From: a virus
Taxonomy: Duplodnaviria; Caudoviricetes
Strand: one strand, 5' to 3'
Virus record (IMG/VR): IMGVR_UViG_3300050034_000334
Length of the DNA: 64,000 bases
Position 1 is the stretch's first letter. Each line of letters starts with the position of its first letter. Positions 2,252 to 62,895 of this stretch are shown one piece after another. The notes under the pieces are model-generated. The model searched no databases, had not been told where the DNA came from, and saw only the letters and a list, made by a program, of their open reading frames with translations. Position numbers and translations under genes: made by a program.

Positions 2252-3018
2252 GGGGTGTTGTTCGCTCTCAGGGTGAAATTGATGTTTTGCAGTGACGATG
2301 CTTTCTGGTTAGAGGTGACTGCAATTGACACTCTGACCAGATTTGGATTGTTCGGATCTTGCTGAGCAGAAATGCCATTGATCGCTACAAGAGTCTCTCC
2401 GTTATCCAAATGTTGAATGGTTGCTTGTGACCTTTGAATGTTCTGCATGTTGGTCAGAGCATTCGTGACCTCTTGACTGATATCGGTGTCTGTGATGTTC
2501 ACACCAAACTTCTTACCGATGTAGTCCTTGATGTGACACACAAGCTGAGGATAAAACCCACAAGTCGACGTGAGGATCCACTTCAGGCTGCGCTGTATGA
2601 GTTTGTCCTGTCCCCAAATATGGAGCAGGCCGCCAGAATTTTGAATGTGCAAATCATTGACGTGCGAAGTTCCATTGCAGCGCAAACAGAAATCCACGAA
2701 TGTTCGGTACGAAACTTCCAGCAGAGGCTGAGATAGCCGAACCTCCTGTTTGAACATGATCTTGAAGAAAGGTTCATCAAGAGAAAGAGTATCCGGATCT
2801 TTGAGAACCTGCCAACCATACAAGTTATGATTCTGAGGAACTGCAACTCCGCCTATGAACACCTTGATCTGACTGGCACCATTCAAAGGAGCTCTCATGC
2901 TCATGTTTGGATCAGCCGCCAGCAGAAAGGTCCGATAATCAAACGGACTTACGGCATACCTCTCCAGGGATTGAAGATGGTCACAACCTGCCGACTTGAT
3001 GGAGAGGTCATAGCTCAT
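2248..3018 (-). CDS. Baseplate protein with C-terminal gp25/GPW-like domain
   Basis: C-terminus 'LKWILTSTCGFYP...ETLVAINGISAQQDPNNPNLVRVSIAV' resembles gp25-like sheath initiators. Start placed at ATG 3018 (ATGA coupling). Confidence 0.65.
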   Translation of the reverse strand: MSYDLSIKSAGCDHLQSLERYAVSPFDYRTFLLAADPNMSMRAPLNGASQIKVFIGGVAVPQNHNLYGWQVLKDPDTLSLDEPFFKIMFKQEVRLSQPLLEVSYRTFVDFCLRCNGTSHVNDLHIQNSGGLLHIWGQDKLIQRSLKWILTSTCGFYPQLVCHIKDYIGKKFGVNITDTDISQEVTNALTNMQNIQRSQATIQHLDNGETLVAINGISAQQDPNNPNLVRVSIAVTSNQKASSLQNINFTLRANNTP

Positions 3019-3638
3019 GTTGTTGTCGTAGGACTCTGATAAGTGCGGTTGGAAATTGCCAGTTCCCAAGGAGTTGGAGGATCCATCTGATTGACCCGGA
3101 ATCTCGCCACTCCTTGGTATAGATCTGTCGTGTCCTGAACCAACACCGCCTGGTATTGGGGTTGAGAAAACATGTTTTCCAGGTTCTGTAGCTGAGTTGT
3201 AGTTTCTGTCGCCGCGCCATTGGCGTCCTGGGCATCATCCTCATTCATCTCTATGAGAGTTCTCACATGGTTCATGGAGAACACGCCGTCATCTTGACGA
3301 TTGAGAGTGTGCTGAAAGTTGTCCTTGATGGTAGACACAGTCACCATGGGAGCATGATCATTTCTGTAGGCATACGAGAAGTGACCATTGGGACCGGGCT
3401 TCCACGAATCTTTCTGGAATGTGGGAGTCAGAGGCTCCTCGTGAAACTCTGCATAGTACTGCTCTAGCAGACCGGCTGTCTTTCTAAACTGCTGAGCACG
3501 CATCTGATGATGCTGCTGGATCGGAGTGAAGTTGGCCGCCTTCTTGTTTACCCAGCTTTCAAACGCAACTTTCTGGCTGTGAGACAAATGGCCCAGGAAA
3601 TTGAAAGGAGGTCCGATGTTTGCATACGAAGTCGACAA
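3015..3638 (-). CDS. Hypothetical virion (baseplate operon) protein
   Basis: 207-aa ORF, TTG start with GGAGG Shine-Dalgarno, translationally coupled within the baseplate operon. Confidence 0.7.
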   Translation of the reverse strand: MSTSYANIGPPFNFLGHLSHSQKVAFESWVNKKAANFTPIQQHHQMRAQQFRKTAGLLEQYYAEFHEEPLTPTFQKDSWKPGPNGHFSYAYRNDHAPMVTVSTIKDNFQHTLNRQDDGVFSMNHVRTLIEMNEDDAQDANGAATETTTQLQNLENMFSQPQYQAVLVQDTTDLYQGVARFRVNQMDPPTPWELAISNRTYQSPTTTT

Positions 3639-5880: not shown

Positions 5881-8800
5881 TCAACCCGCGTAGTAAGTTG
5901 GAATGGAGCCACTTGCAGGTACCAAGTAGATCGCTTCACTCGTGTACTGCAGCCACTGAAAAGTGACCGATTTTGAAATTCCCTTGTCAATCACTGACAC
6001 GGTTATGTTGTTGCTTCCCGTTGAGCCAACTAATGACCCGGTCAGTTGAATCAGAGCCACCGCACTGCCTGAAGATCCAGTTACAGATGTTACAGTTGCC
6101 GAAACTCCTGGTACTGAAGTGGATGCTGAAATAGTGCTAGTTGAAGTAGAAATCACTCCAGTTGCAACCACATAGAACGACATGTTCGGACGAGGACTGA
6201 CTGAACTGATGTTACCAGCATCCACTCCTCCTACGAATCCACTTGGAGATCCTCCAGCAACATAGTCCGGCCCTGACACCAGATACAAGTTAGAAGCTAC
6301 AGTCAGAGACAAGGTCCTTGTGACATAGGCTGTGGTAGAATCTGTCAGCCGGAAAGTGAAGCTGTATGTTCCAACCGCAGTCGAAGTGCCTGTGATAGCT
6401 CCAGTCGAAGCATTCAGATTCATGCCAATTGAAGACAAAGAAGCTGCTGAGGAAGGATCAATCGACCAAGAATAAGCTCCCACACCGCCAGTTCCAGTCA
6501 GAGTGGCGGCGCTGTAAGCCACTCCTGCTGTTGAGTTAGGAAGTGAAGAAGTGGTAATGACCAGAGTCGTATTCTGAACCCTGATGCTGAGAGTGGCTGA
6601 AACCCCGGTGTCTCCAGTGTATCCAGGGACTCCAGACAAAGCCGCATTCAAACTGTCAGTGGCCGTCACAGTAAAGGTCGAAGTGTCAGTTGCAGAAGGA
6701 GTTCCAGATATCACTCCTCCAGAACTCAGAGTCAGCCCAGTTGGGAGACTTCCAGAAGTGAGAGCCCAGCTAACAATCGGAGGATTGTTGGTGGTGGCCG
6801 CCAGGGTAGTGCTGTAAGTGCCTCCAGCAATTCCATCCGGTACAGCAATGGTTGTAACCTTGACCGATGACACAGTCGTGAAAGGAACAGGACCCGTGAA
6901 ATTCTGTCCTAGGCTGTCCTGCACCATGAAGGTGTAGTTGGCCGCCGTGAGAACTAGGTCACAAGTTCCCGAAAGTCCACCGTTGTAAGTGTATCCACTT
7001 CCACGAGTCATCTGTAAATAGTTGGGAAATGCAGGTACTCCCGTGTAGTTCCAGGTATAGGGTGGGGTGCCTCCTAGAGCACCTAGAGTTCCAATGTATC
7101 CCTGTCCACCATAGGGAGCACGAGTGATCGGACCAACACCAGAAATATCAATTGACATGGTGTTAACAGTAACTGAAATCGTAAACACCTCTGAGGTTGT
7201 GACACTAAGGCTATCAACAACCTGAATCGTCACAGATTGAGGTCCTGACAATGTTGCCGGCCCAAGGCCACTGATAGCACCACTCGAATTCATTGTAATT
7301 CCTGCAGGAAATCCTCCAGCAATTACTGACCAAGTGTATCCCAGACCAGATCCTCCACGAGCCGACATCTGAGCATTGTAGTAAGCCGATTGTGTTACGC
7401 TTGGAAGAGGAGAAGTGTTGATAATGATCAGAGAGTCATTCAGAGTGATCGGCAGGGAAGTAGTTGCCTTCACCCCTCTCGAGTCTGTGAGCGTGATCCC
7501 CAGAGTGCTCGAGAAAGCCGTGAGTGCTGTTGTTCCAGAGATAATTCCATTGGGGATCGCAACCGGCAACGATGAAGTCGAAGGTGTGAATCCTGAAGGA
7601 AGACTTCCACTGGTCAGTGTCCAAGTGTACGGTCCGACTCCTCCAACTCCCTGCAGGGAGTCACTGTACGCAATAGACGGGAAAATCTGATCAAGATAAC
7701 CTGTGAGGATCGCCAGAGGAGTGACATACTTGGAAACGAATCTCTTGTAGAGGAACCCAACCGCCCCGGTTGTCGCTATGACCTTGAACCAGACATCAAA
7801 GTATCCGGATTCCGTAGTCGTTCCCGCGACCGTCACTTGTGTTGGAGTCACACTGTTGACCACTGCTGTGATTCCAACAGGGAGCCTTCCTGCAACGATG
7901 GACACCGAAGACAAAGTTCTGTCGGCTTGAATTGACCCAGAATACGGAAGCTGAATGGTGCAATAGGGACTTCTGGGATCACCAAGGTTATCGGTCAAAA
8001 TCACCACACCAGCATAGTTGTTCCAAGTGATCGTGACTGTTCCAGTAGTCACATTGGCAACTATGTAGTTCAGGACTGTCGAATAAACATTGGTGGAAGT
8101 GAGGTATCCATAGATCAACCCAGAACTTGAATCCAATGACAAGCCGCCCGGCAGGAAAGATCCAGTTGCCAGCGAAACTGTGCAACCTGCTCCTTTGCCG
8201 AACGATGGTGAGTTGAAGAAGGGCTTCAGTGGATTCAGGGTTACTAGATTTCCGACTAGATACGGAATAGCTGAAGAACTCAAGTTTCCACCCACAACCG
8301 CCAAAGTTGCGCTGTTGGAGTTCTCCACTGTGTACTCATGGCTGACAGTTGCCACCTGATTTCCTGCAGCGAGAATTGGAACTGAAGTCGTTCCATTGGC
8401 ACTGCCGAAGAAACTGGGAGAAACTATCTGCTGGAAGATCAGGTCTCCGCTCGTCAGAGTGATGCTGATTCCGTTTGCCGAAGTTGCTGAGTACGAACCC
8501 AGGGTCAACCCAGACAAGTTCGAAGAATCGAGGGGAAGAGAAACTGTCGTTGTTGTATCCCCTGATTCCCAAAGATGATCAACAATCGGATTGTACAATC
8601 CAACATTGGCAACCTGAAGACCGACCGTGTAACTGACACTTAGATTTTCGGTGTGGGAAGCAGAGTCAGTGACCAAGAAAGACAGGGTCTGAATTCCGAT
8701 TCTACCAACTGTTGGAGTCAGAAGAAATTCCCAACGACCGTCAATCAAGGCCCCGGAAGATGTGATGCCGGCTCCGTCAGTCATGACTACAGTGTAAGGT

Positions 8801-17515: not shown

Positions 17516-17671
17516 ATCTCTACCTAGAATAGAGAAGTTAAAATCCGGTCAATTCGACTTCGTACTCGAAGGCATCCTGCTTGATCTTCGTTTTTGTCGA
17601 ACCGGATAGATTTCATTGTTTCCCTCCACCTCTCTCTACGGAGTTCGTGCGAGTTCCAGCTAACAAATGTC

Positions 17672-17699
17672 AAAAGAAAAGGCCTCCGAAGAGGCCCTC
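17672..17699 (-). terminator. Rho-independent terminator of the tmRNA gene
   Basis: GAGGGCCTC-TTCG-GAGGCCTTT hairpin followed by TCTTTT on the minus strand. Confidence 0.85.
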
Positions 17700-18110
17700 T
17701 CTTTGCCACGTGATCCCGGTTTATCCAGGACCTTCTGTTGCTAGGATCGTAACCGACCCCCGACAGCGATTAAGCTGCCATTGCCAGCGGAGCGAACGAA
17801 CGGACCGGGAAGGCCAGGACGTTGCTACGACGGGCGCTGATACCATTGTCGGTAGCAGTTATTGTTTCTGTGTCCGATTACGGAGGGCCACAGCGTACCG
17901 AGTTGTTATCTCTGGTCAGTTCCAATTGTCGAATCTGTTCGCCCCCATCATAAGCACTCTGGTTCCCAACTTCTGAACAGTCTCTTCTCCAGCGACCGTA
18001 TGAAATTCTAGGCGAAGTGGAGAGTGCTTATGGTGGAGGCGCGGGTCTATGCTAACCCGGTCCAAATGGCACATCACTTTGACTTCAGCTCCGAAGAGCA
18101 TACAACCATA
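17700..18110 (-). ncRNA. ssrA: Circularly permuted (two-piece) tmRNA: acceptor piece ~18110-18031, intervening segment 18030-17947, coding piece 17946-~17700
   Basis: Minus strand: ...GACCGGGT-TAGCATAG-ACCCG-CGCCTCC-A-CCA comes before GGGGGCG-AACAGATTCGAC. The acceptor stem has G3:U70; resume context AATAACT|GCT; tag frame 17856-17770 = ATDNGISARRSNVLAFPVRSFAPLAMAA*. Intervening ends pair (ATAAGCACTCT/AGAGTGCTTAT). Has its own promoter and terminator. Confidence 0.92.
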
Positions 18111-18116
18111 TAGATA

Positions 18117-18145
18117 GTCTACTGGCTATATTTGAATTCCAGGTA
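18117..18145 (-). promoter_or_regulatory. Phage promoter TACCTG-N17-GTAGAC driving the tmRNA
   Basis: One-mismatch match to the consensus, 17-bp spacer, just upstream of the acceptor piece. Confidence 0.65.
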
Positions 18146-18177
18146 CATCAGTAGTATCTTTAGAGAGGTGGCGAGAT

Positions 18178-18936
18178 TTGAACAAGCGTCTGGTATACAC
18201 GGTCTATAAAACCGTGAACAAAGCAAACGGTAAGTTCTACCTTGGAGTTCATAAGACTTCAAATCCGATGGATGAGTACTTAGGTTCTGGTACTTACATC
18301 AAGCGAGCCGTTGCAAAGTATGGTCAATCTGGTTTCACGAAAGAAATCCTCTTTGAGTACGAAACTCAAGAAGAAGGATGGGACAAGGAGGATGAACTCA
18401 TTGAGTTGAATCGGAATAATCCTCTTTGTACAAACATACGGAAAGGAGGTTCTGGAGGATTTGATTATATCAACAAAAATGGATTACTGACTATGTCAGA
18501 CGAGACTAAATCTAGGTGTACTGCTAAGCTGTTAAACTGGAGGAAAGAACATCCTAATGAAATCAAAGAGAATGCTCGAATAGCTAATCTAACTAGAAGC
18601 AAGCAGTGGAAGGGAGGTAAGCATACAACTGAAGTTTGTCATAGAATCTCAGAAGTGAGTAGTGGACCACACAATAACATGCATGACAAGAAATGGGTAC
18701 ATCATCCTGAATTGGGATTTAAGGCCGTTCTTCTAGATGAAGTACAATCGTATCTAGATGCTGGATGGCTACTTGGAAGAATTAGATATCGCAAGACTAC
18801 TCATTCAACTTATGGTAAGATTTGGATAAATAATGGAGAAAGAAACAAATTGGTGTCTAATCTAGAAGAGTTTCCAGGATGGAAACGTGGAAGATTGATG
18901 ACTATGATACAACGCAGTTTTGCTTCCATCTCTTGA
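18178..18936 (+). CDS. GIY-YIG homing endonuclease (Seg-like, NUMOD-type C-terminus)
   Basis: 'VYKTVNKANGKFYLGVHKTSNPMDEYLGSG'; divergent from the tmRNA gene. Confidence 0.85.
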   Translation: MNKRLVYTVYKTVNKANGKFYLGVHKTSNPMDEYLGSGTYIKRAVAKYGQSGFTKEILFEYETQEEGWDKEDELIELNRNNPLCTNIRKGGSGGFDYINKNGLLTMSDETKSRCTAKLLNWRKEHPNEIKENARIANLTRSKQWKGGKHTTEVCHRISEVSSGPHNNMHDKKWVHHPELGFKAVLLDEVQSYLDAGWLLGRIRYRKTTHSTYGKIWINNGERNKLVSNLEEFPGWKRGRLMTMIQRSFASIS

Positions 18937-18988
18937 AGATTGTGTCCACGCGAAACCCGAAGGTCAGAACTTGTGTCCACCACCAGCG

Positions 18989-19213
18989 ATGAACCACAAC
19001 GGCGCATACTGTGTACGCCACGCATGGAACGCCCTCACGCAAGGGCCGTGCTGCACCTGCACGCCGGAAGGCAGCACGATCACGCTAGACGACGGCGAGT
19101 ACCTTGCGCTGACCAGGATCACCGATAGCGGCTGTCCGATACACGGGATGAGCAGCGCACACGTACCAGACCCGCACGAGGGCGCAAGCACGAAGGGAGG
19201 GCCGAAGCTGTGA
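18989..19213 (+). CDS. Small hypothetical protein (Cys/His-rich)
   Basis: First of four tightly coupled short + ORFs in the GC-richer island. Confidence 0.45.
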   Translation: MNHNGAYCVRHAWNALTQGPCCTCTPEGSTITLDDGEYLALTRITDSGCPIHGMSSAHVPDPHEGASTKGGPKL

Positions 19214-19428
19214 TGGGTAGGCTGATTGGTAGTGATTTTACTCAGGTAGTCCAAACGCGCAAAACACGCTGCTCTGAGTGCGGCTTCAATATCCCTGTCG
19301 GGGATACCGCTCTGGAGTCTATCAAGGACGGCAAATGTGTCAAGCGCGTATGTGGGGAGAATTGCCGGATGGACTTCGATGATCGTTTCTGGCGTGGAGT
19401 TGCGGCCAGAGACAAGAGGCTACGCTGA
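19210..19428 (+). CDS. Small Zn-finger-like hypothetical protein
   Basis: CSEC and CGENC motifs; stop/start overlaps on both sides. Confidence 0.6.
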   Translation: MMGRLIGSDFTQVVQTRKTRCSECGFNIPVGDTALESIKDGKCVKRVCGENCRMDFDDRFWRGVAARDKRLR

Positions 19429-19691
19429 TGACCACGCCCCTGCTCATCATCCTGATCGGCGCCGTGCCGGTAGCCATTCTGAGCGCATGGCTGGACCACG
19501 CATGGCGCAAGCGGCACCCGAAGCAGATCAGCACGGCGGAGTGGCTGCGTAGGATGCGTGCTCTTGAACCTGGAGTGCCCCCTGTGCGTCGCTACGAGGG
19601 CGCGGTAGGGGTAAGCACACCAGAACGCCCTGTGAGGGATAAGAAACTGGCGCTGGTGGTCAAACCGGCGAGAAAGAACGGGACACAATGA
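19428..19691 (+). CDS. Small membrane-anchored hypothetical protein
   Basis: N-terminal hydrophobic helix 'LLIILIGAVPVAILSAW'; coupled overlaps. Confidence 0.6.
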   Translation: MTTPLLIILIGAVPVAILSAWLDHAWRKRHPKQISTAEWLRRMRALEPGVPPVRRYEGAVGVSTPERPVRDKKLALVVKPARKNGTQ

Positions 19692-19906
19692 AGACTCCAT
19701 CAGGGATTGAAATTGAGATAGGTCAGGTTTGGCGCGGTCCTGATTATGGCGTTCAAAATCGCGTGGGACACTTTGAGGATGGTATTGTCTGGCTGTACCG
19801 GAAACATTGCAACGGGCCAGATCGCATCCCTGTGAGTCGATTCAACGGTAAGCGTGGCGGATATGCGCTGTCGGCCGGCAACGATGCGACAGAGGAGAGC
19901 AAGTGA
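19688..19906 (+). CDS. Small hypothetical protein
   Basis: 'IEIGQVWR...' type phage protein; ATGA overlap. Confidence 0.6.
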   Translation: MKTPSGIEIEIGQVWRGPDYGVQNRVGHFEDGIVWLYRKHCNGPDRIPVSRFNGKRGGYALSAGNDATEESK

Positions 19907-19932
19907 TCGCCGCTGGTCTGGCTGCTTACTTC

Positions 19933-20424
19933 CTATCTGTGATCGCCGCTTCGCACGGCCTGTAAGGGCACGAAAGCCGGGGCGTCATGCTCCGGCTTTC
20001 GTGCCTGCTCTGCGCGATACTTCTCGAACCAGAAAACTACCGGCGTTGTATCGATACTTAATTTGCCAAAACGCATCAAGTGGTGTACGTGCGTGTAGGT
20101 TGATATTGTTGGGATGCTGTTCGCAAAATAGGTGAGTATAGAGCGGAAGCCTTCGACATTTGTATCTGCCTTTAGTATGTTGCATCTGACACAAGCAGGG
20201 TAAAGATTGTCTTTATTATCGTTTTCGGGTGAATAAAGTTTCCCGGTTTCCCGTGTCTTTGTGTACCCTGCTTTAGTAACTTCGCCGTGTACATATTCTG
20301 TTTGGCGGCGAACTGGTTCCACATGATCGGCGTGCCATTTGTCGATCAACTCCTGCCCACAATAAGCGCATCGACCGCCAAACATCATGCGGATTCTTTC
20401 GCGCTCTGGCTTGCTAAGGATCAT
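19933..20424 (-). CDS. HNH endonuclease
   Basis: 'GRCAYCG...WHADHVEP...NLYPACVRCNILK'; ATGA-coupled to the endolysin. Confidence 0.85.
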   Translation of the reverse strand: MILSKPERERIRMMFGGRCAYCGQELIDKWHADHVEPVRRQTEYVHGEVTKAGYTKTRETGKLYSPENDNKDNLYPACVRCNILKADTNVEGFRSILTYFANSIPTISTYTHVHHLMRFGKLSIDTTPVVFWFEKYRAEQARKPEHDAPAFVPLQAVRSGDHR

Positions 20425-20975
20425 TTCAACGCTCTCGCCGTCCATGCGTCTTTGTAAATGGCCAGCGCGGGATTCTTGGCAATAAGCGCATCGTAGTACG
20501 CGACACGAGATTGCTGGAAGCTGCCAACAAGTGCAGGGCCGCAAGCGTTTACCTGCTCGACGGTATTTGGACCCCACTTGCCGTCACATATCAATCTCGG
20601 CAATCCAGGATCACCGCACCAATTCACGGCTTGCTGCAAGCACCTCACAGACGCCTCACTGCCGGCATTCACGGCGAAGTCAAAGACGCGCTTTGCAACT
20701 TCGTCGCTGGTCAGTTGCGCGTACCAGGACGAGCCGTTCAAGATGCACCAGAAATGGGCTAAGTAGAACGTCTTCACGAGCGGTCCACGATCAGCTTGCG
20801 GCATGTTGGCAATCGCCGTGTACTGGAGCGGGAAGGCTCCTGAGTTGATTCCTGAGATGGCGAAGCAGTGGTCAAGCGTGCAACCTTCGGGGCACCTGTC
20901 CGTCACGGTCGCGTGCATGTCGGCGGCGTCTTCATTGCTGAGGAGCCATGAATATGCGGTTTTAAACGATGCCAT
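20421..20975 (-). CDS. Glycoside hydrolase family 108 endolysin with PG-binding region
   Basis: 'LLSNED...AISGIN...FY...FW...VFDFAVNAG...RCLQQAV...DGKWGPNT' matches the GH108 + PG_binding_3 layout. Confidence 0.85.
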   Translation of the reverse strand: MASFKTAYSWLLSNEDAADMHATVTDRCPEGCTLDHCFAISGINSGAFPLQYTAIANMPQADRGPLVKTFYLAHFWCILNGSSWYAQLTSDEVAKRVFDFAVNAGSEASVRCLQQAVNWCGDPGLPRLICDGKWGPNTVEQVNACGPALVGSFQQSRVAYYDALIAKNPALAIYKDAWTARALK

Positions 20976-21002
20976 TCTCTCTCCTTAAGGCCGTACAGCG
21001 CC

Positions 21003-21506
21003 TTACTCGCAAAGCCCATACTTTGATTCGCAAGAAGGGCGTTCTGTGTTACCACGAAAAATATTGAATTGCCTTCCGCCTCGATCTGTCTTTGCCCACT
21101 CGATTACTTCATCAATGAAGTTGTACCCTGTTGACTTGATCGGGTCTATCGGGGGAAAGAACGTCACACCGCTTTCAACTTCATAGCGGCGAACTTTTTC
21201 TATCATCTCAGGATAGCGTTCAATCCAGAGGAGAATGTCTTCCTTCCCGCTATTCACACACGGAGCGCAACCGACACGGCCAAATCCAAGTTTGTAAAGA
21301 TGATTGTATTCCTGCCCATGACCCTCAATGAAATCGAAGCACATCTTTTTAGTCCAGTCAGCTAAAGGCGCATGACACATACAATCGAAGTAGGAATCAA
21401 ACCAAGAGAACGGCGTATCTTTCCGGCGCTCCGACTCATCCCTTCGCACTCCAGTGTACCTCTCATAATCCAATCCTGCGTATTCTCCCATCGGGCCGAA
21501 ATGCAA
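21003..21506 (-). pseudogene. C-terminal half of a PAPS reductase-family protein (N-terminus missing)
   Basis: Has 'TGVRRDESERR...PLADWT...LYKLGFGRVGCAPC' but no upstream SGGKDS PP-loop segment in the frames read; no good start. Confidence 0.7.
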
Positions 21507-22429: not shown

Positions 22430-22975
22430 CTAGACTGGATACGCTACTTCAGCGAGTTTCCTTCTCTTGCCGGCGGAAATAGCCGCGCACTCTTCCGGAG
22501 AGCGTTTCTTGCCCAGTCTTCCTCTAGCAAAGGACTGAAGAGTTGCCAACGCAAGCGGGTGTGGTACTCTTCCTTTCTTCAACGCAGATTGACTATCACA
22601 GAATTCCTTAGTCCTTTTCTTTCCTATATTTGCTCTGCGGATTCTTTCAACCACTTCTCTAGGCATCTTCCAACCAGACTTACCTTCTCCACCAAGGGTC
22701 TCGTTGTAGCCACTACCCAAAGAGGCAAGCGTACCTTGTGATTTGATGAACTGCTTCTCGAGATCATTCAACAAACTGACTTCGCAGCAAGCAAGTTCCT
22801 GAATGGAAAAGTTGGAAGCACCATACTTTCGGATGGCCCGATACAGAGCAAAGTCAAGTCCGCTTTTTGCGTTGGCGACATGGTCCTTCCATCTCCCAGC
22901 CACCGATTTCGAGGTTTGTCCAACATACTTCTTCTGATTCACCAAGTTGACAATAAGATAGATGAATCCATTCAT
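22430..22975 (-). CDS. GIY-YIG homing endonuclease with NUMOD3-like tail
   Basis: 'GFIYLIVNLVNQKKYVGQT...R...H'; start at ATG 22975. Confidence 0.85.
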   Translation of the reverse strand: MNGFIYLIVNLVNQKKYVGQTSKSVAGRWKDHVANAKSGLDFALYRAIRKYGASNFSIQELACCEVSLLNDLEKQFIKSQGTLASLGSGYNETLGGEGKSGWKMPREVVERIRRANIGKKRTKEFCDSQSALKKGRVPHPLALATLQSFARGRLGKKRSPEECAAISAGKRRKLAEVAYPV

Positions 22976-23139
22976 ACCTGATAGGTTCCTTCGAAACAGT
23001 CTTTGACATCCTGAAGTCCACAAGTACACTTTGGAGGAGGCTTCGTTCCGCCTTCTGCCACCTTCTTGTTCCACTCGCTCACTTTGCACTCAGGTGTGTG
23101 CTCAGCTTGCTCGAGGTACTCTTGTGCCTTGCTTAGCAT
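22972..23139 (-). CDS. Small hypothetical protein
   Basis: 'MLSKAQEYLEQAEHTPEC...CTCG'; overlaps the previous gene end by 38 nt. Confidence 0.4.
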   Translation of the reverse strand: MLSKAQEYLEQAEHTPECKVSEWNKKVAEGGTKPPPKCTCGLQDVKDCFEGTYQV

Positions 23140-24187: not shown

Positions 24188-24497
24188 CTTCTGCAGCAGG
24201 GGTCGAACCAAAGATAACCCAAATCTAACGGCTCGTACAAAACTTTCTGCACATGAACGAAGAGCGAACTGGAAAATTGTTGGACACTGTAAAAGTACTC
24301 TTGAGCTAGCATCCCGAAAGATGGAAATACTCAGGAGAACGACAGTCAATGACCGCCACAGTTAGGTAGATAATCCAATCCAACGGCTCGTGTGCAAACT
24401 GTGGGCAACCCACCGGGCTGCCTCTGGACTATCGATACGCTGAATATTCAGAAAAGTAAACACTTTTAATTGAACATCTGACTTTTTGCTCCATTGT

Positions 24498-53083: not shown

Positions 53084-53123
53084 TAAATCTCTGCACGAAC
53101 GAAAAGTGAACTTCGTTTTTTAA

Positions 53124-53206
53124 GGCGTCCTAACCCCTAGACGACAGCCCCATGATTTGGCGGGGCCACCAGGATTCGAACCTGGGTATCCTCCTTGACA
53201 GGGAGA
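53124..53206 (-). tRNA. Candidate circularly permuted tRNA-Asp(GTC) (3' part 53206-53158, then 5' part 53151-53124)
   Basis: Anticodon arm, T-arm, TGGCCCC-G-CCA, a 6-nt linker, then GGGGCTG plus a complete D-arm; the two parts pair into one cloverleaf. May be two decayed tandem copies. Confidence 0.5.
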
Positions 53207-53236
53207 ACAAAATTCTGACGGCTCGTGCAAAACCTT

Positions 53237-58315: not shown

Positions 58316-61300
58316 CTAACTGCATCCAGTTGTTTGTCCACAATCGTTGCACTTTTCACAGGTTCCGGATCTCACCATGTGCATAGATCCGCAAGCACCA
58401 CAGGAGTTCCCAGTGAAACCACTGCGCTTGGCTTCACTGGCCTCTGATACGGTTGGCAAACGTGTTTCTTTGTCTACTAACAGCCCCAATGATTTCACCT
58501 TTTCCTTGTCCTCAGGTTTGATGTGGGCAAGGTCATAGCGATCCAGATAGGTGATTGCCAACTCACGGAAGACATAATCCATCAGAGAAGTGGCATTCTT
58601 GACATAGCTGGAACCCTGAACAAATCCAGAAGGTTCAAACTTGGTGAAAGTGAACGCATCCACAAACTCCTCGAGCGGAACGCCGTACTGCAATCCCAGA
58701 CTGATGGCGATAGCAAAGCAGTTGAGGAGAGAACGCAAGGTTGCTCCCTCGCGACTGACATCGATGAAGACCTCTCCCAACCTGCCATCCTCGTACTCCC
58801 CGGTGTGCAGATAGAGGGAATGATCGCCAATTTTGGCCTTCTGTACAAATCCATGGCGACGGTATGGTAGACGCTTGCGAAATCCTCGAGCTAATGCTTC
58901 TGCCAAGACAGCAGCTTTTGTGTCGTTGTTGGCACCGCTGGTGAGCACTTCAACTTCCTTCTCATCCAGGCCCTCCAGCAGCTGCATGTTTGTGGCTAGA
59001 GCCTGTGACATCTTGGATCCGTCACGATACAGAGCCACTGCTTTGATGCCAAGTTCCCACGCCAACAGATGAATGTCATTGAAGTCTTGTTGAGTAGAGT
59101 TGGCCGGGAGATTTACAGTCTTGCTGATAGCTCCTGAAATGAAGGGTTGAACAGCTGCCATCATCTCCACATGAGCACGTGGAGAGATGAAACGAGTACC
59201 ATTTTCACCACACTTGTTGGCACAATCGAACACGGCCAAGTGAGCATTCTTCAAGGCCGGTGCCCCTTCGATGGTCTTCTCGTTCTCGATGTGCTTGAGG
59301 ATCTCAACCACTTGTTCGTCCGTGTACCCCAAGTTCTTCAAGGCCGGAGGGACAGACTGATTGACTATCTTGAAGTATCCTCCACCGGCCAACTTCTTGA
59401 ACTTCACCAGAGCATAGTCAGGTTCCGCTCCCGTCGTGTCGCAATCCATCACCAACCCGATGGTCCCTGTCGGAGCCAAGCAGGTGCTCTGGGCATTCCT
59501 CAACCCGAATTCCTCAACCTGAGACACTACCTTGTCCCAGATGTCACGAGCCTGAGTGACCAGCTTTCTTGGTCCACGATAGAGAAGTTTCAGACCCACA
59601 GGAGTAGTTGAAAGCCCATCGTATCCAAGCTCTCCATTGTAAGCAGCCGAACGATGGTTCCGCATCACTTTCAAGACAACCTCTCGATTTTCATCATAGC
59701 CAGGAAACACTCCCAACTTCTGAGCCAAATCTGAGGATGTCAGGTACGATTCACCTGTCATGATGGCAGTGATGGCCGCAGCCCAGTTTCGGCCGGTCTC
59801 ACTGTCATAAGGAAAGCCCAGCTGCATGAGCATGGCGCCAAGGTTCGCGTATCCCAAGCCCAGGGTGCGGAACTTGTATGACAACTCAGCAATCGAGGGT
59901 CCTGGGAACTGAGCCATCGTTACAGAAATCTCTAGAGCGATGGTTGTCAAACGGCAGCAATGGCGGAAGGCCTCGACGTTGAACTCTCCGTCTTCCAGGA
60001 ACTTCACGAGATTTGAGGAAGCCAGATTGCAGGCAGTGTCATCCAGGAACATGTACTCGCTGTTGTGTATAAACACACCAGAAAAGTTGTCGTGACCATT
60101 CACACAAGACGGTTTTGACGAAGTGAAAACAGCAAAGTTGTGGGTATTGTCTACCGTACCATCGTAGACGTCTTCATTACCACAGAACTCTACCGAAACA
60201 ACCGTATGGTTGAAGTTGACCACGGCCTCTTGTAGTAACTCATCAGTGGGGTACCAACGAACAATAGTGTCTTTTGTGGGAAATTTCTTCACTCCAAGTT
60301 GCTTTGCTACATCTCGTAGTTCTTCCCAATTTTCTAGAGAAAAAGAAACTCCATTATCTTGAAAAGTTCGAGCAACCTCAGCAATCATACCCTCGATTAA
60401 ACGCTTCGAGTGACGTTCTCCAAACATTTGTTTACCAAGTGGAGATCTCTGACATTCAGTACCACAGCAAATCTGATCCTCCAAAATGGTGATGAAATTA
60501 CCACGGCATATAGGGCAGCAACGCTCAAATCGTTCAGCAGTTACTGTACGACCAATATGCCTACCCTCTGATCGCATTTTTGTTTGTGTTTCTCTTATAG
60601 ATCTACTCAACTGTTCGTGTTGTTGGTGGTCTTCCCATCTAGAAACTGCAGAATTACTCATATTCTGTTTGGAAACTTCACTGTGCTGTTTTCCAAACAT
60701 AGGGTTAAGTTCACCAGTGATTGATTTTGAAATGTTGGCACGCCATTCATCATTCATTAAACGACGGGCTGGATTATTGTCACCAAGCATTGATTCCCGA
60801 TGCAAAGCTGCATGATCCTTCGCAGACAATAGCTTGAAATTTTGTGGGTTATCATTCAGAGCATCAAAATCAGAGTGATGAATGTGATAACCTTCCGGTG
60901 CTTGACCAAAAAAGAAATCGTTAATTAAACGATACTGCTGAGCCCAACGAGTACCTCCCCACACATTTCTACGACGCGTGGCTCCTTTTCCATTTTGGAT
61001 TATGGAAGAGTGAAAAGGCATAAGAGAATCACCAGGTTGTAGGTCTATAACCTTTCGGTATGAACCATCCCGCAGCATCATAAGTTCGTCGTCAGTAACA
61101 CGTAGGCTACTTCCATCGTCAAACGTAACGCAGAAAATGGGAGCATTAGTTCTTTTAACTCCAATATTCCACATCAATTCTATTGAAGTCTTTTGCGTCC
61201 TGTGATTCCTGGTAAACACAGGCACTTCTGTTCCTACCAAATCTCTAATAGGAACCGCTGTACGACCATCTGCTACAGCCACCAAAGTCTCCCCAGTAAC

Positions 61301-62710
61301 ACAGCACGGATTGCTGGCATTGATTCTTCCGGAATTCAGACAAGTGTGCCAGTCATTGATGGTCGTGTCGAACTGGATCCCAGGATCTGCACAAAGGAAA
61401 GAAGCCCGGTTGATCTGATCAAACAACTTCTTGGCCTTAAGAGTCTTGGCCACTTCCCCGGTGGTGCGGAAGGTCAGATTCCAGTCCCTGTCCTTTTTGA
61501 CGGCATGCATGAATTCATCTGTGACACGAATTGTGTTGTTGGCATTCATGCCTGAGACTGTCTGGTATGCCTCTCCCTCCCAGTTCAGATCGTACAGAGG
61601 AAGATCGTCAGTGAAGTCAGATTCAGACAAACGAGTCAGACACTGCCCTAGAAATGCTCCAGGCACTCCCATTTTTCTGGCATGGCTGATGACTTTGGCA
61701 AGCTCCTTGTTCTCTTTCGGATTTGCCTTCAAAGCCAAATCTTTGGAAGTGAAGGTGTTGTAAGCCTCCAGCATCTCTCCCCAGATGGTGCGAAGGAGTT
61801 GACTGCCAGCAGCCATTGCAACAACCTTGCGCTCTTCATTCACCTTCCAGTTGATGAAGGCCTCTACATCGGGATGGTCCACATTGAGAACAACCATCTT
61901 GGCTGCTCTGCGGGTGGTTCCTCCAGACTTCACTCCTCCGGCTCCGACGTCTCCCACCTTCAACCAAGACATGAGACCTGAGCTCTTTCCGCCGCCGCTC
62001 AAAGGTTCTCCATATCCACGCAGGGCAGAGAAGTTGGATCCTGTTCCGGAGCCATACTTGAACAAGCGAGCCTCGCGATGGAACAGGTCGAAGATTCCTC
62101 CAGGATTGACGAGGTCGTCTTTCACTCCCTGAATGAAGCAGGCATGAGGCTGAGGACGCTTGTACGCAGAATCGCTCACGGTCAACTCTTTGGTGCCGTC
62201 GTCGACATAGTAGTGACCCTGTGGATCTCCCTCAATTCCGTATGCCCAGTACAAGCCGGTATTGAACCACTGAGGGGAATTGGGAGCAACGTACTGCATC
62301 ACCACCATGTAGAGCATCTCGTCGTAGTAGGCTTGGGCGTCTTTCTCTGAAGAGAAGTATCCGTATTCCTCTCCCCACCCAGTCCAGCAACCTACGATTC
62401 TATGAGCAGTCTGTCTCACATCAGTTTCGTAAGTGATCCCATCCGGATGGTCCAGCTTGGAGGCCCACTCGGTGGAGTACTTGCTGTTGTAAAGGGAGTT
62501 GGGGTGGTTGTGATTCACTCCTTGCCGGCGGAAATACTTCTGGGCAAGGATATCCAAGGCAGTCTGAGACCAGGATTCTGGCACGATGACATTGTCGTTC
62601 TCAAAAACCACAGAATTGTCTGGTCTAACGATGTTGGAGCATCTCCGTATGAAGCTGATGCCCTCTAAAGGCGACTGTCCGGCCTTGGTGAAAATTCGCT
62701 TTACCTTCAT
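58316..62710 (-). CDS. nrdJ: Class II (B12-dependent) ribonucleotide reductase, intein-containing
   Basis: 'PNSPQWFN', 'HACFI', 'SGTGSN', 'KSGGTTRRAA', 'ASNPC|SEY', 'ACNLAS', 'APTGTI', TSCPD-like C-terminus with a Cys cluster. Confidence 0.95.
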   Translation of the reverse strand: MKVKRIFTKAGQSPLEGISFIRRCSNIVRPDNSVVFENDNVIVPESWSQTALDILAQKYFRRQGVNHNHPNSLYNSKYSTEWASKLDHPDGITYETDVRQTAHRIVGCWTGWGEEYGYFSSEKDAQAYYDEMLYMVVMQYVAPNSPQWFNTGLYWAYGIEGDPQGHYYVDDGTKELTVSDSAYKRPQPHACFIQGVKDDLVNPGGIFDLFHREARLFKYGSGTGSNFSALRGYGEPLSGGGKSSGLMSWLKVGDVGAGGVKSGGTTRRAAKMVVLNVDHPDVEAFINWKVNEERKVVAMAAGSQLLRTIWGEMLEAYNTFTSKDLALKANPKENKELAKVISHARKMGVPGAFLGQCLTRLSESDFTDDLPLYDLNWEGEAYQTVSGMNANNTIRVTDEFMHAVKKDRDWNLTFRTTGEVAKTLKAKKLFDQINRASFLCADPGIQFDTTINDWHTCLNSGRINASNPCCVTGETLVAVADGRTAVPIRDLVGTEVPVFTRNHRTQKTSIELMWNIGVKRTNAPIFCVTFDDGSSLRVTDDELMMLRDGSYRKVIDLQPGDSLMPFHSSIIQNGKGATRRRNVWGGTRWAQQYRLINDFFFGQAPEGYHIHHSDFDALNDNPQNFKLLSAKDHAALHRESMLGDNNPARRLMNDEWRANISKSITGELNPMFGKQHSEVSKQNMSNSAVSRWEDHQQHEQLSRSIRETQTKMRSEGRHIGRTVTAERFERCCPICRGNFITILEDQICCGTECQRSPLGKQMFGERHSKRLIEGMIAEVARTFQDNGVSFSLENWEELRDVAKQLGVKKFPTKDTIVRWYPTDELLQEAVVNFNHTVVSVEFCGNEDVYDGTVDNTHNFAVFTSSKPSCVNGHDNFSGVFIHNSEYMFLDDTACNLASSNLVKFLEDGEFNVEAFRHCCRLTTIALEISVTMAQFPGPSIAELSYKFRTLGLGYANLGAMLMQLGFPYDSETGRNWAAAITAIMTGESYLTSSDLAQKLGVFPGYDENREVVLKVMRNHRSAAYNGELGYDGLSTTPVGLKLLYRGPRKLVTQARDIWDKVVSQVEEFGLRNAQSTCLAPTGTIGLVMDCDTTGAEPDYALVKFKKLAGGGYFKIVNQSVPPALKNLGYTDEQVVEILKHIENEKTIEGAPALKNAHLAVFDCANKCGENGTRFISPRAHVEMMAAVQPFISGAISKTVNLPANSTQQDFNDIHLLAWELGIKAVALYRDGSKMSQALATNMQLLEGLDEKEVEVLTSGANNDTKAAVLAEALARGFRKRLPYRRHGFVQKAKIGDHSLYLHTGEYEDGRLGEVFIDVSREGATLRSLLNCFAIAISLGLQYGVPLEEFVDAFTFTKFEPSGFVQGSSYVKNATSLMDYVFRELAITYLDRYDLAHIKPEDKEKVKSLGLLVDKETRLPTVSEASEAKRSGFTGNSCGACGSMHMVRSGTCEKCNDCGQTTGCS
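60062..61303 (-). mobile_element. Intein (414 aa) with HNH homing endonuclease, inserted at NPC^SE
   Basis: Begins 'CVTGETLV', ends 'VYDGTVDNTHNF...VFIHN' with +1 Ser; internal 'HIHHSDFDALNDNPQNF...H...H'; AT-rich. Confidence 0.93.
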
Positions 62711-62895
62711 GCTATTGTGTCCTTGGGTATGGGGGATTTCGAGGGTCAGAAATCGTACGTGATGATTCAATACTCAGCCTATGAAAGATTGGTTACAAGT
62801 TACCGATTACCAAGGTGGTTACTCACTCGGGTGCGTATTTCTTCATGCGGCGAAAGCATCGCCAAACGCTGGTCTCACTGGTAGGATGGATAAGT

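Follow-up and report, generated by a model that had tools for sequence, protein, structure and literature searches.

A complete, circularly permuted tmRNA gene of divergent sequence in a jumbo phage from peat and permafrost

Introduction

The tmRNA is the ribosome-rescue RNA of bacteria. Phages carry genes for it as well, and the OM43 phage Melnitz was found to encode a two-piece, alpha-like ssrA (Buchholz et al. 2022, PMC9004378). Among the 133 distinct tmRNAs in public phage genomes, that study counted 53 of the two-piece form, 50 of which were marine or aquatic (PMC9004378). Seventy-nine sequences in the 2025 tmRNA database come from bacteriophages. In IMG/VR, at least 120 contigs match a pattern that requires the permuted gene order.

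Here we report the analysis of a 64,000-nucleotide stretch of viral DNA (IMG/VR record IMGVR_UViG_3300050034_000334; called the window here), in which a first-pass annotation had proposed a phage-encoded, circularly permuted two-piece tmRNA gene. The annotation regarded phage tmRNAs as one-piece, a premise that does not hold in the light of Melnitz, the other two-piece forms and the IMG/VR contigs. Two-piece phage tmRNAs are already known, and the novelty of the present gene is modest. What is new is the subgroup to which it belongs, the link to the Acidobacteriota and the mosaic structure of its alleles.

Results and Discussion

Identification of the gene

A complete, circularly permuted tmRNA gene is located at 17672–18109 on the minus strand of the window. 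When the window was searched with Infernal and the Rfam covariance models, tmRNA_permuted (RF04321) matched over its full length (model positions 1–213) with 64.8 bits (E = 3e-10 for the whole window), and alpha_tmRNA (RF01849) also matched over its full length with 61.6 bits (E = 1.7e-14). Both scores lie above the gathering thresholds, which are 47 bits for RF04321 and 50 bits for RF01849, and are much higher than chance would give. The beta-type model (RF01850) reached 18.7 bits on this gene, below its gathering threshold of 84 bits, and the cyano-type model (RF01851) gave no match to it. The proposal of a permuted tmRNA gene was thus confirmed, and all coordinates of the first-pass annotation, on the minus strand, proved correct. 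Membership in the alpha type is above gathering yet marginal, as typical members score 91–135 bits. Since ordinary permuted genes on viral contigs score 90–135 bits, far more than the window copy, the latter is divergent.

ARAGORN, a check that the annotation had suggested, called 13 tRNAs in the window and did not call the tmRNA gene, probably because of its 8-nt T-loop, UAGCAUAG. The program also failed on the tmRNA gene of Tunturiibacter phage Tunturi_5, described below, and on four of the loci that we collected (L130, L060, L124 and L209). We attribute the missed call to the detector and do not count it against the gene. ARAGORN did call the permuted form in two further loci, L197 and L129, and placed the resume codon at the same position in both.

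Architecture of the two pieces

The acceptor piece, which is the 3′ half of the tRNA-like domain, spans 18031–18109 on the minus strand and was delineated by the Rfam alignments and helix checks. It contains a short 5′ hairpin (GCUCUUCGGAGC, 18088–18099). The 5′ strand of helix P2a (CCAUUUG, 18063–18069) is followed by GGAC and then by the T-arm, in which a 5-bp stem (CGGGU/ACCCG, 18055–18059 with 18042–18046) closes the 8-nt loop. This T-loop is non-canonical, and the variant recurs in other phage tmRNAs. The piece ends with the acceptor 3′ strand CGCCUCC (18035–18041, identified in the helix check), the discriminator A and an encoded CCA (ACCA, 18031–18034, with the CCA end at 18031). The acceptor half and its T-arm are therefore present as first annotated.

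The coding piece spans 17704–17946 on the same strand; it was defined by the alignments and helix checks, and its 3′ limit was taken from RNA contigs. G1 is at 17946, and the acceptor 5′ strand GGGGGCG (17940–17946) forms seven of seven pairs with CGCCUCC, among them G3:U70. The D-loop analogue (AACAGAUUCGA, 17929–17939) comes next, and the motif AACAGAUUCGAC, by which the T-arm and D-loop analogue (...UUCGAC) are recognized, is present. The 3′ strand of P2a (CAAUUGG, 17922–17928) forms six of seven pairs with CCAUUUG. Of helix 2 across the pieces, as originally proposed, P2a is present; the distal part shows up irregularly or not at all in the model alignment, and a competing duplex has a slight edge in stability (−15.5 versus −13.8 kcal/mol). 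Minimum free energy cofolding of the two pieces recovered the acceptor stem and the T-arm and missed P2 and PK1, as expected with pseudoknots.

A pseudoknot, PK1, is formed at 17868–17900 by the stems CGG/CCG and CUGUG/CACAG. Its stem 1 shows a compensatory change relative to Tunturi_5 and L197, which have CGA/UCG in place of CGG/CCG. The tag reading frame at 17770–17856 translates into 28 residues, ATDNGISARRSNVLAFPVRSFAPLAMAA. It is open, starts with an alanine codon, reads ATDN...LAMAA and ends in two alanines. The resume codon GCU (17854–17856) is at the position homologous to that of the L197 tag called by ARAGORN, in support of the resume motif that had been annotated. The stop codon UAA (17770–17772) lies in the loop of a hairpin at 17762–17779 with a 6-bp stem (GGCAGC/GCTGTC), again as annotated. 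The combination of an open frame, an alanine start, an AA end and a stop in a hairpin was likewise found in five of six related genes. The 3′ tail carries the motif GCAACAGAA at 17733–17741.

Spacer, flanking signals and transcription

The two pieces are separated by an intervening segment of 84 nt (17947–18030, minus strand) that is expected to be removed. Its ends, TAAGCACTCT and AGAGTGCTTA, pair to form a clamp of 10–11 bp (18021–18030 with 17951–17960), leaving 4 nt (UGAU) between the clamp and G1. The spacer folds with −28.0 kcal/mol (z = −3.1). In the fold of the precursor (−49.3 kcal/mol), the clamp stacks on the acceptor stem, which agrees with the description of the paired ends in the first-pass annotation. 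We looked for an open reading frame in the 84 nt and found none.

The gene ends with an intrinsic terminator at 17672–17696 on the minus strand, made of the hairpin GGCCUC-UUCG-GAGGCC (17681–17696) and the U-run UUUUCUUUU; here, too, the annotation was right. It had also listed a promoter, which we could not confirm. A scan for a sigma-70 consensus promoter found none, and the only promoter-like sequence for the gene is a weak candidate, TTCAAA-18 nt-TATATG at 18107–18136, which lies partly inside a homing-endonuclease block.

The gene is transcribed, and its product is a discrete RNA in the environment. When 601 nt around the gene were broken into words, six metatranscriptome runs contained 54–63% of them. 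We compared four of these runs, from four studies, with positions 17560–18220, and each gave one contig that covered the gene only and left the flanks empty. The contigs extend from 17704, 17729 or 17775 to 18083, 18095 or 18109, with a mean depth of up to 617, and in one metatranscriptome the tmRNA is very abundant. Because the uncovered flanks serve as a silent control, DNA carry-over is unlikely. All four contigs continue through the spacer, which shows that the precursor exists. Contigs cannot show the ends of an RNA, so the cutting into two pieces, unlike the permuted gene order itself, keeps the status of a prediction.

The phage and its relatives

The source of the gene is a phage, as had been annotated. 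The window encodes a ribonucleotide reductase, two helicases, a UvsX-like recombinase, an exonuclease and homologues of tail-fibre proteins in addition to the 13 tRNAs and several homing-endonuclease genes. A 20.8-kb IMG/VR fragment is 100% identical to the window over the tmRNA element; because this fragment is rated 7% complete, the phage genome should measure about 300 kb. Metagenomes of peat, permafrost and bioreactors, from 17 studies in all, contain the element, and at least 13 DNA runs and two other metagenome contigs carry it without any difference in sequence. With blastn, no match to the element was found among 50,697 phage records.

The closest isolated relative is Tunturi_5 (PP885688.1), a jumbo phage of 308,711 bp. 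It was obtained from Finnish tundra soil, and its host is Tunturiibacter psychrotolerans (Acidobacteriota). Proteins of the window are 37–41% identical to those of Tunturi_5; the helicase is 37.5% identical, and a tail-fibre protein of 1319 residues shows 40.8% identity across 99% of its length. The window is thus part of a jumbo phage from peat and permafrost with a genome of roughly 300 kb. Its probable host is a member of the Acidobacteriota, judging from the relationship to Tunturi_5 and the habitat alone.

Comparison with the IMG/VR fragment L123, which is 99.8% identical to the window, uncovered further differences. An extra block of 2.5 kb in the window (18983–21504) contains an HNH endonuclease (19933–20577), an endolysin-like fragment and an ORF with a PAPS-reductase domain. 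Conversely, L123 has about 2.1 kb that the window lacks, at window position 24200, and about 60 extra bases (L123 4968–5027) just 3′ of the tmRNA terminator that are absent from the window (17586). A GIY-YIG endonuclease is encoded at 22430–23089. This region is a hotspot of endonuclease-associated insertions and deletions. Two other features of the window are recorded here. Directly after a tRNA-Val, at 53089–53232 on the minus strand, there is a back-to-front tRNA-like module that may be a tRNA mimic of the Y-RNA/YrlA kind; it consists of a T-arm (CCAGG-TTCGAAT-CCTGG), TGGCCCC-G-CCA, a linker of 6 nt, GGGGCTG and a D-arm, in this order. The large subunit of the ribonucleotide reductase (58316–62770, minus strand, 1484 residues) has an HNH-endonuclease-like stretch at residues 618–662, which suggests an intein or an inserted endonuclease.

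A subgroup with long tags

Among about 215 collected loci, only those of Tunturi_5 and L197 match the window in the mRNA-like body. The Tunturi_5 homologue is at 157818–158215 on the minus strand of PP885688.1 (about 2819–3216 of our locus L195) and scores 86.4 bits with RF04321. It has no annotation in GenBank, and the paper describing Tunturi_5 does not mention a tmRNA. The other homologue (L196/L197/L198) is on a 127-kb contig with 34% GC. The three tags have 28 (window), 34 (Tunturi_5) and 26 (L197) residues. All three genes have perfect acceptor stems with G3:U70 and a PK1 that differs by one compensatory pair, and their stop codons are placed in hairpin loops made of differing sequences. 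A 28-nt motif comprising PK1 and the resume site is common to the three, and among 241 million metagenome records it was found only on these phage contigs.

With RF01849, Tunturi_5 scored 25.4 bits and L197 gave no hit, so that both remain under the gathering threshold. Matches of these two genes to the alpha, beta and cyano models are confined to the tRNA-like domain, and we therefore regard the subgroup as a divergent, alpha-leaning phage lineage. The window, Tunturi_5 and the 127-kb contig together form an undescribed subgroup with long tags (26–34 residues), of which Tunturi_5 is the only cultured carrier. Searches with two conserved proteins detected nothing that would place L209, L197, L124, L130 or L060 in the same phage lineage, which is weak evidence. 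Because ARAGORN misses the window gene and the GenBank annotation of Tunturi_5 lacks one, pipelines applied to soil phages are likely to under-report such genes.

A sister allele and a neighboring homing endonuclease

A sister strain (L129; IMGVR_UViG_3300014168_000013) carries another allele at the same locus, with flanks that are 95–99% identical to the window. The acceptor strands and the terminator are 100% identical and the spacer 95%. By contrast, the T-arm, the D-loop analogue, P2/PK1 and the tag are only 31–67% identical. The L129 allele has a canonical T-arm, differs from the window in P2 and PK1, and encodes a tag of 10 residues, AEPYALPMAA; it scores 103 bits with RF04321 and leans toward the beta type.

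An inserted block of 830 bp (18110–18939, plus strand) adjoins the tmRNA gene on its upstream side. The block holds a free-standing gene whose ORF (18178–18936) encodes a homing endonuclease (phrog_314, E = 9.4e-32). The block is absent from L129 and from the strain in the RNA runs X16 and X17, which has a window-type tmRNA gene without the endonuclease block. It is plausible that endonuclease-driven co-conversion between co-infecting relatives produced the allelic mosaic. Two alleles built around a common spacer beside a homing endonuclease offer a natural example of modular exchange within a structured RNA gene.

Proposed function

We consider it quite likely that the gene is a functional, phage-encoded, circularly permuted ssrA. 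Cutting, alanylation, use of SmpB, tagging and a benefit to the phage are steps that we infer for it from the features described above. A single precursor of about 400–440 nt would run from about 18100 to the terminator near 17672. Host tRNA-processing enzymes would act on it, with RNase P cleaving at G1 (17946) and trimming of the 3′ side leading to the encoded CCA (18031), and the clamped spacer would be freed. The two RNAs that result would remain joined through pairing in the 7-bp acceptor stem and in helix P2. The G3:U70 pair and the discriminator A would direct charging with alanine by the AlaRS of the host, and host SmpB and EF-Tu would bring the RNA into stalled ribosomes. Translation would resume at GCU (17854–17856) and add the 28-residue tag ending in LAMAA, and the ribosome would be released at UAA. 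The benefit to the phage would most plausibly be that ribosomes are kept free while host mRNA is degraded or cleaved; the phage also brings dozens of tRNAs.

A search for SmpB was negative both in the window and in the genome of Tunturi_5, which is complete. The RNA would therefore need the SmpB of a host phylum that uses one-piece tmRNA. Ordinary trans-translation with host SmpB is the most likely function.

The main functional rival is that the RNA acts as a decoy or inhibitor, a diverged mimic that sequesters SmpB, AlaRS or EF-Tu of the host, or whose entry into ribosomes is unproductive, and that so shuts down trans-translation in the host. There is precedent for this, as a tag-less mini-tmRNA of mycobacteriophage DS6A was reported to shut down host trans-translation (cited in PMC11915505). 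The low model scores, the enlarged T-loop, the weakened P2, the absence of a phage-encoded SmpB from the window and Tunturi_5, and the high abundance of the RNA in one metatranscriptome would all suit such a role. So would a tag-less mini form in the tRNA array of another phage (L206; IMGVR_UViG_3300024265_000070, at about 7810–7910). This tmRNA-like gene of about 100 nt has GGGGATG with the same GAACAGAUUCGAC D-loop variant, is completed about 95 nt downstream by CATCTCC as its acceptor 3′ strand, and recalls the DS6A-type form. In the window gene, however, the tag frame, the resume context, PK1 and the stop hairpin are intact and have been kept relative to Tunturi_5 and L197, although the genomes have diverged widely. 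Such conservation would be unexpected if only the tRNA-like part mattered, and we therefore judge the decoy role to be unlikely and retain trans-translation as the preferred reading.

Origin of the permuted form

The first-pass annotation offered two readings of the permuted order, namely that it marks the host lineage or that it arose independently. The first does not fit. The only cultured relative infects an acidobacterium, and among 2144 Acidobacteriota genomes the tmRNA is one-piece in 1589 cases and permuted in 5 (PMC11915505, Table S2). As the phylum is almost entirely one-piece, the form of the phage gene does not mirror that of its probable host. The same table lists small numbers of permuted tmRNAs in otherwise one-piece phyla, and archaeal MAGs are among their sources; examples are Acidobacteriota (5), Bacteroidota (48) and Thermoplasmatota (10). 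These sporadic cases in non-proteobacterial MAGs may be binned phage DNA.

For the second reading, the distribution of a variant of the tRNA-like domain has to be considered. The variant of the window combines the D-loop analogue GAACAGAUUCGAC with the T-loop UAGCAU. It occurs in permuted genes (the L130 group and L205) and also in one-piece genes, namely L124 (RF00023, 81 bits) and L209, the latter on a 307-kb contig, and the tag-less mini form L206 shares it as well. L124, on a 61-kb contig, has an apparent long tag ending in ...QVLAPVAIAA. We found L124 through the 5′ 19-mer of the window gene, considered it as a sign of independent permutation and rejected it, as only universal tRNA-like parts match.

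An independent permutation, or a switch of gene order within the phage tmRNA pool with no descent from the alpha, beta or cyano permuted lineages, would account for the shared variant in one-piece (L124 and L209) and permuted (L130 group and L205) phage genes, and for the matches of Tunturi_5 and L197 to the three models over the tRNA-like domain only. The window gene, however, matches the alpha model above gathering over its full length, including the PK1/resume region and the 3′ GCAACAGAA motif. The spacer clamp UAAGCA...UGCUUA is common to 60 viral contigs, typical alpha and beta types among them. Furthermore, the mRNA-like bodies of L124 and L209 bear no similarity to that of the window, and no relationship between their phages and that of the window was detectable. 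Exchange of tRNA-like modules, or convergence, accounts equally well for the pattern of the variant and is the simpler reading, so that a separate origin of the permutation appears improbable.

In a search of 185,579 species-representative genomes, the exact 5′ 19-mer had no match in a tmRNA, and a near-identical host ssrA, which the annotation had named as a refutation, was not found among them; the three matches of the 19-mer, against about four expected by chance, all lie inside coding sequence and are without a CCACCA partner. The match to the alpha model and the fact that tmRNA genes are frequent phage integration sites might suggest that a host ssrA was acquired recently and simply, or that the gene is what remains of one at an attachment site, but this is scarcely credible given that 19-mer result, the restriction of the PK1/resume motif to these phage contigs among the 241 million metagenome records, and a gene that is complete, is kept between phages whose proteins are about 40% identical and has a likely host phylum of one-piece type.

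A divergent phage lineage of alpha-leaning type, with exchange of modules or convergence in the tRNA-like domain, is our preferred view of the origin. A broader scenario can be outlined, which we put forward as a speculation with a rather low chance of holding as a whole. Jumbo phages of soil and peat may maintain an evolving two-piece lineage of their own, rather than a recent host copy, that works in one-piece Acidobacteriota. Their long, mostly basic tags of 26–34 residues may serve a phage-specific end and not ordinary degradation tagging. Neighboring homing endonucleases may reshuffle the modules between co-infecting phages, possibly switching between permuted and one-piece order.

Comparison with known systems

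Among the described groups close to it in architecture is the alpha type (RF01849), known from Caulobacter (Keiler et al. 2000, cited in PMC9004378 and PMC11915505). The window gene shares with it the order of an acceptor 3′ half with CCA, a spacer and G1. G3:U70, helix P2 across the pieces (seen in the window as P2a), a single pseudoknot before the resume codon and the 3′ GCAACAGAA motif are further points in common, and both tags terminate in AA. It differs from the alpha type in its score (61.6 versus 91–135 bits), its 8-nt T-loop, its 84-nt spacer, a tag of 28 instead of about 12 residues and its location on a phage. Outside the tRNA-like domain, the alpha model does not fit the nearest homologues of the window gene. 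The D-loop variant GAACAGAUUCGAC is also present in permuted viral genes of low GC content whose tags are short and alpha-like (the L202 group).

Among phages, Melnitz and related pelagimyophages likewise carry an alpha-like permuted ssrA in a large lytic myophage genome, and there, too, the type of the phage tmRNA differs from that of the host (PMC9004378). Those phages are marine, have genomes of about 140 kb, encode short tags and carry a glutamine riboswitch (PMC9004378), whereas the window phage comes from peat, measures about 300 kb and encodes a 28-residue tag; a search of the window with Rfam gave no riboswitch hit. The window thus adds a terrestrial case to the mostly marine and aquatic two-piece phage tmRNAs.

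The gene of Tunturi_5 has a canonical T-loop of 7 nt, the acceptor stem GGGCCCG and a spacer of 36 nt, and differs from the window in all three. Together with Tunturiibacter psychrotolerans, Tunturi_5 provides a cultured and tractable system in which a two-piece phage tmRNA meets the SmpB, AlaRS and proteases of a one-piece phylum, and in which the role of a 28–34-residue tag can be addressed. It belongs to the same jumbo-phage lineage as the window and is its closest homologue in the mRNA-like body, with a near-identical PK1/resume region, a stop codon in a hairpin and a long tag of 34 residues that ends in AFAMAA and shares the core V-L-[A/S]-F with the tag of the window.
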